Virus record (IMG/VR): IMGVR_UViG_2636415673_000003
Source of the DNA: a virus
Lineage: Duplodnaviria; Heunggongvirae; Uroviricota; Caudoviricetes
Length of the DNA stretch: 26,193 nt
Reading direction: 5' to 3' (one strand)
Within the stretch, counting starts at the first letter, position 1, and every line of letters starts with the position of its first letter. Made by a program: the position numbers and the translations under genes. The notes under the pieces are model-generated. The model did no database searches. It saw nothing but the letters and a program-made list of their open reading frames with translations, and was not told the origin of the DNA. Positions 5,299 to 24,641 of this stretch are shown here, piece by piece.

Positions 5299-6774
5299 TT
5301 AGGAGCGCCAAAAAAAACCTGAAAACAATATAATAACAGGATAAATTTCAAGGCGACCAAGAATCATAGCTATGCACATTAAACATTTTGCAATGTCATT
5401 AAGCACTCCGAATGACGATGCAGTAGCCCCAAAACCTAATCCCATATTATTAATACATGCAGCCACTGTTGCAAATGATGTAAGAAAATCATATCCCATA
5501 CCATTTAACACCAGTATAAAAAACACCGTGAAGAGAGTATAAAGAAAAAAGAAACTCCATACAGACCTCATTACACGATCTGTAACTATCTTCCCTCCTA
5601 CATTTACACTCAACAACGCTCTGGGATGAGAAAGCTGATTTATCTCGTGTTTGCTTTGTTTGAAAAGTATAAGAAATCGAAGTGACTTAATTCCACCACA
5701 AGTTGAACCTATACATCCCCCAAAGAAACTTGACAACAGCAAAAACACTATCGTGTGCGTGGGCCAACTTGCATAATCCTGCGTAGCTAAACCATTATCA
5801 GTGAGCATGGAGCTGGCAAGAAAAAACGAATGAATAAAACTTCCATGCAAGTCATACATACCTATATGCCAGACCTGGAAAGAGGTAACAATGATCACCC
5901 CTAAGGCTATTAACAGAAAGAAACGAAGTTCAATATCTCTGATTAAAGGTTTTATCGTTTTCCTGCTAATAACAATATACCAAAGAGTGAAGTTGAAAGC
6001 CGATAGCAGGGAAAAAGAACCAGCCACCAGCTCAACCAAATAGTTATTAAAATATCCGATACTCTCGCTATGAGTTGAGAAACCACCAAGCGAAACTGTG
6101 GAAATCCCGTGACAAATAGCATCAAACAAAGGCATTCCTGCAAGTCTATAACAGACAATACAAGCAATACCTAATAAAGAATAAGTTATCCACAGTGTCC
6201 GTGACGTATCGGCCAGGCGGGGAGTGAGTTTGTCATCCTTAAATGGCCCCGGCATTTCTGACTGATAAAGCTTTGCACCACCAATACCCAATAATGGCAA
6301 TACAGCAACCGCCAGAACAATAACTCCTAAACCACCTATAAAATTTAACTGTGACCGATAGTACAAATATGCCCGAGGTAATGAACTAACATCATCAATT
6401 ACAGTTGCTCCTGTTGTTGTTATTCCAGAAACCCCTTCAAACAGAGCATCAATGAACGTTAAATTAAGTTCTGAGTCAATCCATAAAGGGAATGCACTAA
6501 TAACAGAAAACAAAATCCAAAACATTACAATTATAATAAACCCATCACGGGTACGTAATTGAATGCCAGATTTCTTAGTTGTATACCACGCTCCGCCACC
6601 AATGCAAAAAAATATAACGAAAGTTATAAAGAAAACGAACAGGCTTTTTTCTTTATAAAACAATGCTACAACCATTGGTGGCAACATTGAAAGACTATAG
6701 AGCCAAACCAGGAACCCACACATATGAGTAACAACTCTTACATGAGATGTATTCATATCTAAATATTCTTTCAA
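5299..6774 (-). CDS. trkG: TrkG, Trk-system K+ uptake membrane protein (prophage cargo gene)
   Basis: 491 aa polytopic membrane protein of the TrkH/TrkG family; AT-rich; positioned just past Rz/Rz1, as I recall for trkG in K-12 Rac. Confidence 0.9.
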   Translation of the reverse strand: MKEYLDMNTSHVRVVTHMCGFLVWLYSLSMLPPMVVALFYKEKSLFVFFITFVIFFCIGGGAWYTTKKSGIQLRTRDGFIIIVMFWILFSVISAFPLWIDSELNLTFIDALFEGVSGITTTGATVIDDVSSLPRAYLYYRSQLNFIGGLGVIVLAVAVLPLLGIGGAKLYQSEMPGPFKDDKLTPRLADTSRTLWITYSLLGIACIVCYRLAGMPLFDAICHGISTVSLGGFSTHSESIGYFNNYLVELVAGSFSLLSAFNFTLWYIVISRKTIKPLIRDIELRFFLLIALGVIIVTSFQVWHIGMYDLHGSFIHSFFLASSMLTDNGLATQDYASWPTHTIVFLLLSSFFGGCIGSTCGGIKSLRFLILFKQSKHEINQLSHPRALLSVNVGGKIVTDRVMRSVWSFFFLYTLFTVFFILVLNGMGYDFLTSFATVAACINNMGLGFGATASSFGVLNDIAKCLMCIAMILGRLEIYPVIILFSGFFWRS

Positions 6775-9853: not shown

Positions 9854-10144
9854 TCACAAATATCCCTCCTTTCTCCAGATTTCTTGTGTGCGAAAAACAC
9901 CTTCTGCATGCATCAGGCGTAATTCTTCTTTGGTGTAATCGCTGGTTTTTACCCGCCCGTCGATTAGATCGTGGCATGAGCTACAGGCAATCGCCGCCTG
10001 CATATCGTGTGGTTTTGTCGCTGTTCCGCACGTTCCCGCCAGTCGGTAATGCGCCAGCACAGACGTTTCCGGATCGTGATTGCAGTAGCCAGGAATTCTG
10101 ACGGTGCACATCTGCCCCCGCGCCGCTTTACGTAAATCCACCAT
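9854..10144 (-). CDS. YbcO-like Cys-rich nin-region protein (DUF1364-type putative nuclease)
   Basis: 96 aa with Cys/His clusters (RIPGYCNHDPETSVLAHYRLAGTCGT...ACSSCHDLID), matching my recollection of DLP12 YbcO. Confidence 0.65.
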   Translation of the reverse strand: MVDLRKAARGQMCTVRIPGYCNHDPETSVLAHYRLAGTCGTATKPHDMQAAIACSSCHDLIDGRVKTSDYTKEELRLMHAEGVFRTQEIWRKEGYL

Positions 10145-10743
10145 TACGCAAACTCCAGCAGCTGCGCGGTCACATTTTCGACTTGTTCCGGAGAGGAAAA
10201 TTTACGGAACAGAATCCAGTTCCACAGCACATTCAGAACAGATTTATAAACCTGCTGAAACTCGGTTTCGTCCATATTCGCAAAAGCGATGGATTTCGCC
10301 CGACGCCCATGGCTACCATCAGGATAAAGATGCTCGGTGTAAAATCCGGCCTGAATGGTTACCCACTCGCGGAAAGCCTCAAACGACTTTAGCAATGCCG
10401 TATCCCGGGTTCTGCGTGTCGCAACTGTATTCAGATATTGCTCTGCGGCTTCGCTCAGAGCTGGCGTATGTTCCCGGCCTACTGATTCACATAGGTAATC
10501 AACGAATCCTGAAACCAGCTTTCGTTCGCGAGGCGTGATCGCCCCACCGACCGGAGTCCAGTAATCGAATCCCAGTTGCAGGAGTTTGAAAAAACGCTTG
10601 TGGAATGCGTAGTTACGCACACGCTTAAAGTCTGCGTGTATCCACTCGCCTATTTTGATTTGATGCAAAAAATCGCAACTCTCCGGCGTCGCCGGGAGAA
10701 GTAGTCCAGAAGAGGTTTGTTTGACCAGTTGTATATGCGCCAT
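10144..10743 (-). CDS. Conserved lambdoid nin-region protein (DUF1367-like)
   Basis: 199 aa ORF coupled to the ybcO-like gene (overlapping start/stop); family assignment is from memory only. Confidence 0.55.
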   Translation of the reverse strand: MAHIQLVKQTSSGLLLPATPESCDFLHQIKIGEWIHADFKRVRNYAFHKRFFKLLQLGFDYWTPVGGAITPRERKLVSGFVDYLCESVGREHTPALSEAAEQYLNTVATRRTRDTALLKSFEAFREWVTIQAGFYTEHLYPDGSHGRRAKSIAFANMDETEFQQVYKSVLNVLWNWILFRKFSSPEQVENVTAQLLEFA

Positions 10744-11021
10744 TTCTCAATCTCTCGATGGCGCAGTGCAGCAGATGCCAGTTGTTCAGGCTGACGAATA
10801 AAGTATAAATAAACTGGCTATGGTGTAAAGCTCCACATAACATGAACAAACACTACATATCAAATAGCTGATACAAGGATAGAAATACAACACTTATTAT
10901 TAAAAACGATTAGATAAATTACATTTTAATGTTATGAAAAAGTTCTTTTTTATCATAACATTTCAACAAAAGCATTACAGATGCACATCCCGTCATCATC
11001 AATTATTTAAGGTGGTTAAAC

Positions 11022-11108
11022 ATGGAAAATAACAACTATGCACATCTCGCTCCTTTTTTATCCGTAATCCTTTTCGCTGGCTGTTTTATATGGGCATTAT
11101 TTTTATAA
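11022..11108 (+). CDS. Small hydrophobic peptide (28 aa), possible type I toxin-like or small membrane protein
   Basis: ATG at 11022 with AAGGTGG 6 nt upstream. MENNNYAHLAPFLSVILFAGCFIWALFL has a polar N-terminus and a single TM-like C-terminus. Too short for the ORF track. Confidence 0.35.
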   Translation: MENNNYAHLAPFLSVILFAGCFIWALFL

Positions 11109-11181
11109 AGTAGCCGCATGATTAGTTTCTGGAATCATGTTTCCCACTCAAATCATTAACATTTGATAAGATATATCTAAA

Positions 11182-11243
11182 AGGATGCCTTTACATTATT
11201 TGATGCGTATATGATTTATTTATATGCACAGTAAAGGCATCCT
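11182..11243. repeat. 13-bp perfect inverted repeat (AGGATGCCTTTAC ... GTAAAGGCATCCT) separated by 36 nt
   Basis: Read directly from the sequence. On the minus strand it is followed by TTTT, so it may act as a terminator or a protein-binding palindrome. Confidence 0.5.
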
Positions 11244-11555
11244 GGAAATAATCAAGATTAATGATATATTGCTTATCTCATCCCCCACTGTCTTTCACCC
11301 GGAAAACATTTATCGTTAAAAATATATCATAAGTAATTAAATTGAAATTTCAGAACACAACTAATGCACACAATAAGATTCAGTAACAGTAATCTATGCG
11401 GACTATATCGAGATTTTTTAGTTAAACTTTAATAAGTTATTCCTAACACACAGAATGCACAAACTAAAAGTAAAACAAATAGTTATACGAAAAACAACCA
11501 TATTGATTCTATCTTCTCCTCTAATCAACATATCAATTATGTGTTTCATAACAGC

Positions 11556-11595
11556 TTGACATAACCCTCAAAAAGGTGCATTTATAATGCATGTT
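11556..11595 (+). promoter_or_regulatory. Promoter of the yeaR-like gene with an NsrR-type operator overlapping the -10
   Basis: TTGACA (11556-11561), TATAAT (11584-11589), and AAGGTGCATTT-A-TAATGCATGTT (11573-11595), which matches the NsrR inverted repeat (AAnATGCATTT-n-AAATGCATnTT) as I recall it. The 21-nt spacer is atypical. Confidence 0.5.
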
Positions 11596-11610
11596 TTATG
11601 GGAGGTGGTT

Positions 11611-11952
11611 ATGACACACAAGAGAATTCCTAAAGACTGGGTAATCAAACGCTCAACTCCGTTCTTCACAAAAGAGAACGTACCTTCAGCGTTATTAACA
11701 CATCATAATACAGCAGCAGGTGTTTTTGGACAGTTATGCGTGATGGAAGGTACTGTAACATATTATGGTTTTGCTGATGAGAATGCTACTGAACCGGAGA
11801 TAAAAGTAGTCATTAATGCTGGCGCTTTTGCAACAAGCCCACCACAATACTGGCACCGTGTTGAACTAAGCGATGATGCTCAGTTTAATATTAACTTTTG
11901 GGTAGCTCCAGACTTCTCAGGCGAAAAAGTCTATACCGCAAAAAAAGAATAG
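11611..11952 (+). CDS. YeaR-like protein (DUF1971 / TehB N-terminal-domain-like)
   Basis: GGAGG 5 nt upstream of ATG 11611. RSTPFF...CVMEGTVTYYGFADE...EPE...NAGAFATSPPQYWH...FNINFWVAPD resembles E. coli YeaR as recalled. Confidence 0.75.
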   Translation: MTHKRIPKDWVIKRSTPFFTKENVPSALLTHHNTAAGVFGQLCVMEGTVTYYGFADENATEPEIKVVINAGAFATSPPQYWHRVELSDDAQFNINFWVAPDFSGEKVYTAKKE

Positions 11953-12034
11953 CCACGCTATAAATATCTTATTAACTAGTCCCGGCGTGGTTCTTTCCCC
12001 GCTGGGTCTTTTACTCAGATTAGTAGTCTACGAA

Positions 12035-12160
12035 TCAGAGCCTCCGTCTGCCAGTTCGGATTCGTACCTCGCAGAGGTCTTTCCTCGTTACCAGTGCCGT
12101 CACTATGACGGTTAAACAGATGACGATCAGGGCGATTAACATCGCCTTTTGCTGCTTCAT
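12035..12160 (-). CDS. hok: Hok-family type I toxin with truncated/divergent C-terminus (41 aa)
   Basis: MKQQKAMLIALIVICLTVIVTALVTRKDLCEVRIRTG matches the HokD/RelF N-terminus as recalled, then ends RRRL-stop instead of the usual ~15 further residues. A short upstream ORF ends in ATGA overlapping the hok start (mok-like coupling). Confidence 0.75.
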   Translation of the reverse strand: MKQQKAMLIALIVICLTVIVTALVTRKDLCEVRIRTGRRRL

Positions 12161-12330
12161 AGCCTGCTTCTCCTTGACCTTTCGGTCCGTAAGAGGCTAA
12201 TCTCTATGTGTCGCATAGATATGGCCTCAGATTAATGTTAAACGTCTTGCAGGACGCGTAATGTTAACTGGGGCTTTTCTCTATCTACCTTTGGTGTTCA
12301 TGCCCGAGGCAGATAGCCTCAAGCACCCAC
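12161..12330. promoter_or_regulatory. hok mRNA leader / mok-like frame / expected Sok antisense RNA region
   Basis: By analogy with hok/sok loci, Sok is encoded antisense to the hok leader; the exact promoter and terminator were not resolved by eye. Confidence 0.35.
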
Positions 12331-12682
12331 AGCAATTCTAACTATCCAATACATCACTGCCAACACTTTAAACTCTTACCCTTTAAAACAAGAACAAAAT
12401 TCAACCAATCAGCATTGGGCGTATACTCATATCCTAGAGAAAACAACTCTTTCTGTACTATTTATATCCATATGATTTATAAGCATTTGCCACTTGCCAT
12501 AGCCGCACAATGACAGTTTGCCATTTGATGTCAATAGATAAAAATGATCGTTTTCAATGAGTTACATACTTGCAAGGCGTTGCACATCAGGCCCGATTAC
12601 GTCAGTATCAAAAGATTACAGATGGTGCATTACTGCCACTTCGCCTTAATGTTCCAGAACTCTCCAACTTGAGGAATTTTCA

Positions 12683-13456
12683 ATGACATCCTTTCAATTA
12701 TCTTTGATTTCTCGTGAAATTGACGGCGAAATAATACATTTACGTGCCAAAGATGGTTACATAAACGCCACATCAATGTGTAGAACTGCGGGCAAACTGC
12801 TCTCTGATTACACTAGACTCAAAACTACTCAAGAGTTTTTTGACGAATTATCACGCGATATGGGAATTCCCATATCGGAGTTAATTCAATCATTTAAAGG
12901 TGGAAGACCTGAAAACCAAGGGACATGGGTGCATCCTGACATCGCTATTAATCTAGCGCAGTGGCTATCGCCCAAATTTGCAGTCCAGGTTTCAAGATGG
13001 GTTCGTGAATGGATGTCAGGGGAAAGAACTACAGCAGAAATGCCTGTACATTTAAAACGGTACATGGTTAATCGTAGTAGAATTCCTCACACGCACTTTT
13101 CTATTCTTAATGAACTGACATTCAACTTGGTTGCACCTCTTGAACAAGCAGGGTACACACTCCCAGAAAAAATGGTTCCTGACATTTCACAAGGAAGAGT
13201 ATTTTCACAATGGTTAAGAGATAATAGAAACGTAGAACCCAAAACATTCCCTACCTATGACCATGAATATCCCGATGGTCGCGTATACCCTGCAAGGCTG
13301 TACCCAAATGAATATTTAGCAGATTTCAAAGAACATTTTAACAATATTTGGTTGCCGCAATATGCCCCGAAATACTTCGCTGACCGGGACAAAAAGGCTC
13401 TCGCCTTGATTGAAAAAATTATGCTACCTAACCTCGATGGCAATGAACAGTTCTAA
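12683..13456 (+). CDS. KilA-N domain protein (N-terminal KilA-N/APSES-like DNA-binding domain; C-terminal ~130 aa unknown)
   Basis: IDGEIIHLRAKDGYINATSMCRTAGK...WVHPDIAINLAQWLSPKFAVQVSRWV is a KilA-N signature. AT-rich gene with its own RBS (GAGG) and a downstream terminator. Confidence 0.8.
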   Translation: MTSFQLSLISREIDGEIIHLRAKDGYINATSMCRTAGKLLSDYTRLKTTQEFFDELSRDMGIPISELIQSFKGGRPENQGTWVHPDIAINLAQWLSPKFAVQVSRWVREWMSGERTTAEMPVHLKRYMVNRSRIPHTHFSILNELTFNLVAPLEQAGYTLPEKMVPDISQGRVFSQWLRDNRNVEPKTFPTYDHEYPDGRVYPARLYPNEYLADFKEHFNNIWLPQYAPKYFADRDKKALALIEKIMLPNLDGNEQF

Positions 13457-24265: not shown

Positions 24266-24460
24266 ATGAGATATGACAATGTTAAACCATGTCCATTTTG
24301 TGGTTGTCCATCAGTAACGGTGAAAGTCATTTCAGGATATTACCGAGCGAAGTGTAACGGATGCGAATCCCGAACCGGTTATGGTGGAAGTGAAAAAGAA
24401 GCACTCGAAAGATGGAATAAACGAACCACTGGAAATAATAACGGAGGTGTTCATGTATAA
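24266..24460 (+). CDS. ralR: RalR (Lar) restriction-alleviation protein / type I toxin DNase
   Basis: MRYDNVKPCPFCGCPSVTVKVISGYYRAKCNGCESRTGYGGSEKEALERWNKR... (64 aa). Confidence 0.9.
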   Translation: MRYDNVKPCPFCGCPSVTVKVISGYYRAKCNGCESRTGYGGSEKEALERWNKRTTGNNNGGVHV

Positions 24461-24641
24461 AATTACCGCCACTATTGAAAAGGAAGGTGGCACTCCTACT
24501 AACTGGACAAGATATTCAAAATCTAAACTAACGAAATCAGAATGCGAAAAAATGCTCTCAGGTAAAAAAGAAGCAGGCGTTTCCAGAGAGCAGAAAGTAA
24601 AACTGATAAATTTTAATTGCGAGAAACTTCAGTCCTCGTGA
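24453..24641 (+). CDS. ydaC: YdaC (DUF1187-type) small protein
   Basis: MYKITATIEKEGGTPTNWTRYSKSKLTKSECEKMLSGKKEAG...; ACGGAGGTG upstream; overlaps the ralR stop. Confidence 0.8.
   Translation: MYKITATIEKEGGTPTNWTRYSKSKLTKSECEKMLSGKKEAGVSREQKVKLINFNCEKLQSS

Follow-up and report, generated by a model that had tools for sequence, protein, structure and literature searches.

NsrR is an [Fe-S] protein that acts as a nitric oxide (NO)-sensitive repressor and binds an 11-1-11 inverted repeat (PMC5320621). In Escherichia coli, yeaR-yoaG is under NsrR repression and NarL activation (Lin et al. 2007, cited in PMC5320621), while in Salmonella the gene STM1808 is listed as a member of the NsrR regulon with a role in virulence, with reference to Karlinsey et al. 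2012 (PMC7527575, PMC7082413). The gene considered here belongs to the same protein family and lies at 11611–11952 on the plus strand of a 26,193-nt stretch of viral DNA of the class Caudoviricetes (IMG/VR record IMGVR_UViG_2636415673_000003). This whole stretch is referred to as the window, and all coordinates are those of the window; the piece examined is 11556–11952. The gene encodes a DUF1971 protein of 113 amino acids and is preceded by a predicted NsrR operator at 11573–11595. It is likely to be an NsrR-repressed, NO-inducible phage cargo gene (moron), and wiring of this cargo gene into the nitrosative-stress response of the host is the best reading of the available sequences. STM1808 is reportedly a zinc protein that requires H32 and H82 to bind zinc and to give NO resistance. 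Host regulators are also known to control some phage morons, such as Fur-controlled stx1 and PhoPQ-controlled sodCI of Gifsy-2.

The prophage gene resembles Salmonella STM1808 in its subfamily, in its length of 113 amino acids, in 77–80% identity to the Salmonella proteins, in the retention of H32 and H82, and in the presence of an NsrR 11-1-11 palindrome shortly 5' of the ATG. However, STM1808 is a chromosomal core gene that follows nhaB-dsbB, whereas the E. coli copy is prophage cargo; its leader is also shorter, with the operator centre at −27 instead of −39, and the geometry of the −10 region is changed. With E. coli yeaR-yoaG, the gene shares a DUF1971 product and an NsrR operator in the promoter (the yeaR site reads AAATGGTATTTAAAATGCAAATT), but its protein is only 42–44% identical to YeaR (44% for K-12 YeaR), it has neither a yoaG nor a NarL site, and the promoter DNA of the two genes cannot be aligned. 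Similar to the host-regulated morons mentioned above, it is an autonomous piece of prophage cargo, transcribed apart from the phage operons and opposite to them, whose composition is foreign and which carries a site for a host stress regulator; unlike in those examples, the regulator here would be NsrR.

The operator is a 23-bp 11-1-11 palindrome, AAGGTGCATTTATAATGCATGTT, at 11573–11595, with the half-sites AAGGTGCATTT-A-TAATGCATGTT. It follows the NsrR pattern AANATGCATTT-N-AAATGCATNTT with two mismatches, and an independent inverted-repeat search recovered it with arms at 11571–11582 and 11586–11597. An earlier note on this DNA had claimed that a palindrome at this place closely matches the NsrR repeat, and the claim was borne out by a symmetric weight matrix built from the 27 sites of 11-1-11 form that Mehta et al. 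2015 list for NsrR in E. coli CFT073 (PMC5320621 Table 4, in which no site of the present gene appears). On this matrix the window operator scores 26.7 bits, far above background, the runner-up position across the 26-kb window reaching 12.3 bits. The exact P per position is 1.9e-10 under E. coli composition and 6.7e-10 under the composition of the window itself, and about 0.001 sites of this strength are expected per 5-Mb genome. The training sites include ytfE (31.6 bits), hcp (26.2 bits), yeaR (24.1 bits), ygbA (22.5 bits) and hmp (20.5 bits); only ytfE of the 27 outscores the window operator, even though training sites score high by construction, and the prophage operator is thus stronger on this scale than that of yeaR. 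Similarly, a search with the consensus AANATGCATTTNAAATGCATNTT at no more than three mismatches gave a single match in the window, at 11573–11595 with two mismatches, and none of 100 shuffles gave a match. All 5426 complete E. coli genomes carry the gene for the regulator, nsrR, at an identity of at least 95%.

The operator is conserved among the chromosomal orthologues. Eighty orthologue loci, one genome per species, were scanned with the 27-site matrix, and 65 sites of at least 16 bits were found in 484 kb of orthologous loci, 58 of them within 100 nt upstream of the orthologue ATG. A site of 18–31 bits (median 29), centred 27–39 nt before the ATG, is present at 57 of the 58 enterobacterial chromosomal loci, from which the Shigella locus, being a prophage allele, was left out. 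The lone exception is a locus of Leclercia adecarboxylata (L012, 744–783), where AAAGGTGTATTTAAATGCATGTT fails the 23-bp register and looks like the palindrome with a one-base deletion at its centre. Over 55 unique promoters, conservation amounts to 1.63 bits per column in the 23 operator columns versus 0.46 and 0.48 in the flanks, a contrast that is somewhat inflated by anchoring on the best matrix match, although scores of about 29 bits are still beyond chance. The register of the −35 element is shared too, 11 nt ahead of the operator, and reads TTTACA in Kluyvera and Leclercia and TTGACG in Klebsiella. In the same scan, a proximal NsrR site was absent from most Vibrio, Aliivibrio, Agarivorans and Shewanella loci, where the sequence directly before the gene resembles coding sequence; three Photobacterium loci do have a proximal site. 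At a Neptunomonas locus (L063), strong sites lie about 1 kb to either side of the ATG, and locus L055 has the two downstream sites; their positions suggest a different operon arrangement.

A further element was observed in the promoters of some orthologues. A Fur-box-like motif, GATAATGAgATTtATTATC, occurs in 21 of the 80 with no more than 5 mismatches in 19 positions to the Fur consensus, a level of match that was reached by only 1 of 400 shuffles. In 19 enterobacterial loci it lies just upstream of the −35 element, 74–76 nt before the ATG, and in two Photobacterium loci (L062 and L075) the distance to the ATG is 85 and 91 nt; the enterobacterial cases fall within L004–L024, L034 and L081, in Kluyvera, Pantoea, Enterobacter, Leclercia, Silvania, Buttiauxella, Pseudescherichia and Intestinirhabdus. 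The prophage copy has no Fur box in the equivalent stretch, 11524–11552, where the best match has 8 mismatches. The chromosomal genes may be under dual control by iron and NO, and this may have been lost in the prophage copy.

As for the origin of the unit, BLASTN of window positions 10700–12100 against the orthologue loci gave Kluyvera-type alignments that start at query positions 871–874, corresponding to window positions 11570–11573, and run from the left edge of the operator to the stop codon at 72–76% identity; the −35 hexamer lies outside the stretch that BLAST could align. Since DNA homology to the chromosomal loci starts at the operator, the operator was probably captured together with the gene and did not evolve in the phage. 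Among representative genomes outside Escherichia and Shigella, the best DNA identity is only 72–80% and is limited to the operator and the gene, which points to no particular donor.

The product matches Pfam PF09313 (DUF1971) with an E-value of 3e-26 and 91.6 bits against a gathering cut-off of 23.1. The start codon is the ATG at 11611, which has the Shine-Dalgarno sequence GGAGG upstream (11601–11605, plus strand, 5 nt ahead of the ATG and kept in the orthologues), agrees with the RefSeq annotation and aligns with M1 of all orthologues. The start given by the open reading frame (ORF) finder, an ATG at 11587 that would yield 121 amino acids, falls inside the −10 hexamer and the operator and was rejected. 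The protein is 74–83% identical to chromosomal proteins of Kluyvera, Pantoea, Enterobacter, Leclercia, Citrobacter, Klebsiella, Raoultella and Salmonella, and likewise to proteins of Vibrio, Aliivibrio, Photobacterium and Shewanella; no sequence in the orthologue alignment departs from H32 or H82. The structure matches are PDB 3DL3 at an E-value of 2.6e-59 over residues 1–112 and the YeaR structure 3BB6 at only 4.6e-25. The entry 3DL3, called "tellurite resistance protein B" by its depositors, is an orthologue, so the fold of the subfamily has been solved, but this structure gave no functional assignment; the NCBIfam TehB model matches weakly, at 48 bits against a cut-off of 303. In addition, there is a full-length match to phrog_34268, a PHROGs family of unknown function, and PADLOC assigned the DUF1971 protein to no defence system. 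It can be seen that the resemblance to YeaR described in the earlier note held at the level of the DUF1971 family, but that the identities place the gene in the STM1808-type subfamily and do not make it a copy of yeaR.

The chromosomal setting of the orthologue is seen in Salmonella enterica subsp. arizonae, where it stands directly after nhaB and dsbB and ahead of ycgN- and ycgM-type genes. We take the Salmonella gene in this position to be STM1808, on the strength of the order of the LT2 locus tags and of a shared label, "putative cytoplasmic protein". In E. coli K-12, the interval matching this slot between nhaB, dsbB, ycgN and ycgM holds umuDC and hlyE and no orthologue.

The distribution of the prophage gene was determined by blastn over 5426 complete E. 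coli genomes, a search sensitive to about 65–70% identity. The gene is present in 466 of these genomes (103 at an identity of at least 99%, 357 at 95–99% and 6 at 90–95%) and intact in 453; all copies found are at least 90% identical, mostly with one per genome, and those inspected all have the same Rac-like context. These results hint that the species lacks a chromosomal orthologue. Records of Shigella and E. marmotae carry the gene too. Chromosomal yeaR is present in 5420 of the 5426 genomes, so that the prophage gene supplements it and does not take its place. Ka/Ks, the ratio of nonsynonymous to synonymous divergence, is 0.04 between two E. coli alleles (pN 0.004, pS 0.092); this is the mark of purifying selection, and therefore the gene has stayed functional during its residence in prophages. 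Its base composition, with a guanine-plus-cytosine (GC) content of 40.6% and of 31.6% at third codon positions (GC3), marks it as foreign to the phage, whose genes on either side stand at about 50%.

Operator variants were compared between the window and seven other records, six from E. coli and one from Shigella. The window has AAGGTGCATTTATAATGCATGTT; strain SCU-109 has AAGGTGCATTTATAATACATGTT, for which no score is given; and H14, WP2-W18-CRE-03, ATCC 43896, LP50-1, B-JRPT-4119 and the Shigella record have AACACGCATTTATAATGCATGTT, which seems to be the most frequent form on the evidence of the five sampled E. coli records and the identity bands. The hexamers TTGACA and TATAAT are unchanged in all E. 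coli alleles examined. One record is a special case: in E. coli B-JRPT-4119 (L089, 401–852) the promoter and operator are intact, and an IS1A that begins just 3' of the operator removes the 5' end of the gene.

The arrangement of the signals around the operator allows a mode of control to be proposed. A −35-like hexamer, TTGACA, lies on the plus strand at 11556–11561, 11 nt ahead of the operator, and a consensus −10 hexamer, TATAAT, lies on the same strand at 11583–11588, wholly within the operator and 21 nt from TTGACA; the overlap of operator and TATAAT and the distance to TTGACA are as the earlier note had described them. In the orthologues, −10-like hexamers (TATTTT, CATATT or TATATT) occupy operator positions 7–12, at 17–18 nt from the −35 element, and these positions are presumably the −10 of the orthologues. 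The corresponding site in the window, 11579–11584 (plus strand), reads CATTTA, a poor −10, while two central substitutions (TTTTAAAT to TTTATAAT) give the perfect TATAAT 4 nt further downstream. Since both −10 candidates fall within 11573–11595, the logic of repression would be unaffected by which of them serves. In the absence of NO, holo-NsrR dimers on 11573–11595 would cover the −10 element and block RNA polymerase by promoter occlusion, the likeliest mechanism given what is known of NsrR; NO would nitrosylate the [Fe-S] cluster of NsrR, the repressor would leave, and transcription would start from about 11591–11596, giving a leader of about 15–20 nt that carries GGAGG. A lysogen would in this way gain an NO-inducible protein that the E. 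coli core genome appears to lack. The orientation of the gene against the phage early operon and its host-type signals imply that this NO response would not depend on the phage repressor. The comparisons establish the site, its statistical strength and its conservation in orthologous promoters, the prophage context, the purifying selection and the presence of nsrR in every host genome; NsrR binding, the −10 in use, NO induction and a benefit to the host are inferred.

Several points weigh against this proposal. The spacing of 21 nt between TTGACA and TATAAT is an atypical geometry, as the earlier note had remarked, and a promoter scan with spacers of 16–18 nt called no promoter ahead of the DUF1971 gene; given this spacer and the CATTTA at the ancestral position, the basal promoter may be weak or may need an activator. 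No convincing site for a co-regulator or activator was found in 11440–11610: for NarL heptamers or a 7-2-7 arrangement there was nothing better than 4 mismatches, for FNR no match at 3 or fewer, for Fur a best match with 8 of 19 positions mismatched, for CRP an unconvincing site with 3 mismatches, and for IscR type 2, searched with a rough pattern, a best match with 9. The commonest E. coli allele of the operator has three changes in the left half-site (AACACGCATTT) and scores 20.8 bits; with its left half-site weakened in the majority form, tight repression seems not to be preserved uniformly, while the score itself is on par with that of the hmp site. Silencing by H-NS of the upstream DNA, which has 31% GC, may be added as a speculation. 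Finally, the prophage gene is taken to be the E. coli counterpart of STM1808, and the equation with that locus tag rests on synteny, on the label and on the order of the locus tags.

Some of these points also support the view that the unit is an inherited relic, in which gene and site were captured together, the promoter has since been crippled or silenced, and NsrR control is inconsequential. This view draws on the lack of a canonical promoter at 16–18-nt spacing, the decayed ancestral −10 position, the loss of the Fur-box-like element found in the closest promoter type, the degraded left half-site of the majority allele and the AT-rich upstream DNA. However, it has to account for the low Ka/Ks between prophage alleles that are about 10% apart at synonymous sites, for the intact gene in 453 of the 5426 genomes and for the perfect TATAAT, TTGACA and GGAGG kept in all alleles examined, and it is regarded as unlikely, although it is the most credible of the alternatives. 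A duplication of chromosomal yeaR(-yoaG), activated by NarL and repressed by NsrR, would explain why both proteins belong to DUF1971 and why both promoters carry an NsrR site, but the protein is about 80% identical to the STM1808 type and far less similar to YeaR, hok and not yoaG lies downstream, no NarL heptamer or 7-2-7 site was found in 11440–11610, and yeaR remains at its own locus in almost every genome. A yeaR duplicate is contradicted by these observations and was rejected as hardly credible.

The identity of the protein that binds the palindrome is itself read from sequence, and palindromes over promoters are generic repressor sites, so that a phage-encoded regulator or another Rrf2-family member such as IscR could be considered in place of NsrR. 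The operators of phage immunity systems usually come in sets, but this palindrome is a single copy in the window; the same palindrome stands ahead of chromosomal orthologues that have no phage context, its NsrR matrix score is above those of most validated NsrR sites, and the rough IscR type-2 pattern was matched poorly. Another regulator is therefore very improbable. A chance palindrome could be favoured by the AT-richness of both the region and the NsrR motif, but the P value under the composition of the window, the absence of matches in shuffled sequence and the conserved position across genera exclude it statistically, and its likelihood is negligible. An NsrR-repressed cargo gene that moved with its own operator is the explanation favoured by these comparisons.

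The prophage setting agrees with the claim in the earlier note that the gene is prophage-borne. Over 11300–12200 the window matches, at 100% identity, a Rac-like prophage of E. coli strain 7/2 that is integrated beside ttcA. The same full identity was seen over 11400–11960 with three deposited phage genomes of about 38 kb, namely vB_EcoS-666R9 and two relatives. The early-right and late genes of the phage are on the minus strand and include replication genes, a NinB-like gene (10144–10743), DUF1364, a Q-like gene and lysis genes, while the DUF1971 gene is on the plus strand and runs against the phage early genes, in a slot flanked by the replication genes and the NinB-like gene. An AT-rich stretch of about 800 bp (31% GC) without a RefSeq gene (10744–11555) parts it from the divergent NinB-like gene. 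The only ORF in this stretch encodes 43 amino acids, annotated as "hypothetical protein" in phage record ON470614; the stretch is about 90% identical in the second E. coli/Shigella allele, and Rfam gave no match in 10744–11610, its matches in the window being sok and RalA only, both elsewhere. Downstream of the gene, a possible weak terminator lies at 11981–12012 (plus strand; hairpin CCCGGCG...CGCTGGG followed by TCTTTT, fold z-score −2.6); a terminator scan called none for the DUF1971 gene, and the loop of this hairpin exceeds 8 nt.

Convergent with the DUF1971 gene is a hok/sok-type toxin-antitoxin locus at 12035–12363 on the minus strand, comprising a Hok ORF known from ORF search and annotation (12035–12160), sok (12158–12328, Rfam match of 101 bits) and a promoter-like TTGGCA-17-TAGAAT found by the promoter scan (12363–12335), all on that strand. 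It is followed by a KilA-N/BstA-like gene on the plus strand (12683–13456; phrog_6287, E-value 2.7e-89; PADLOC BstA, E-value 3e-21), and the prophage therefore probably carries an anti-phage defence gene of this abortive-infection family. The DUF1971 gene, hok/sok and the BstA-like gene form what is, from their features, a moron or cargo cluster: the DUF1971 gene lies between phage modules on the opposite strand, is patchy among genomes, has a low GC3 and has its own −35, −10 and Shine-Dalgarno sequences, while its terminator is a weak candidate. Read-through past the weak hairpin could run antisense across the full length of the convergent hok mRNA and into the BstA-like gene on the same strand, which would make the toxin-antitoxin and anti-phage modules NO-responsive, but this is considered quite improbable. 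The second allele, found in H14 and Shigella flexneri, occupies the same slot of a Rac-like prophage, and the E. coli carriers have two different right-hand neighbours: in H14 (L083, 9132–16444) and S. flexneri (L003), hok and BstA are replaced by 6 kb of chromosomal-type cargo with genes for an MFS transporter, a gamma-glutamylcyclotransferase, a LysR regulator, a DUF2254 protein and a BCCT transporter. Elsewhere in the window, RalA, the small RNA antitoxin of the RalR toxin of Rac, has a full-length Rfam match of 225 bits at 24459–24637 (minus strand) beside an annotated ralR, and trkG, a potassium-transporter cargo gene known from the Rac prophage of K-12, lies at about 5299–6756 (minus strand; L001, 8000–9457) between the lysis genes and a ParB-like gene.

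The control of STM1808-type genes in Salmonella and of the paralogue yeaR in E. coli by NsrR is already known, as are host-regulated morons. In the literature searched, whose coverage was incomplete, no account of an NsrR-controlled prophage gene was found, and searches on DUF1971 with NsrR and on the protein and phage accessions gave no earlier description of this prophage gene, the lone DUF1971 match in uropathogenic E. coli being chromosomal yeaR; the STM1808-type unit with its operator in Rac-like prophages of E. coli, Shigella and E. marmotae thus appears to be undescribed. About 9% of complete E. coli genomes obtain an STM1808-type gene from a Rac-like prophage. Because the gene arrives with a top-ranking NsrR operator, a mobile element would enlarge the NO-stress regulon of the host without any need for new wiring. 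The natural operator alleles, at 26.7 and 20.8 bits, offer a test case for the tuning of operator strength after transfer. If the proposed control is correct, the gene would be a clean case of a regulon member that moves horizontally with its own operator, and it would be a candidate for raising fitness where NO abounds, as in the inflamed gut, in macrophages and in the urinary tract.

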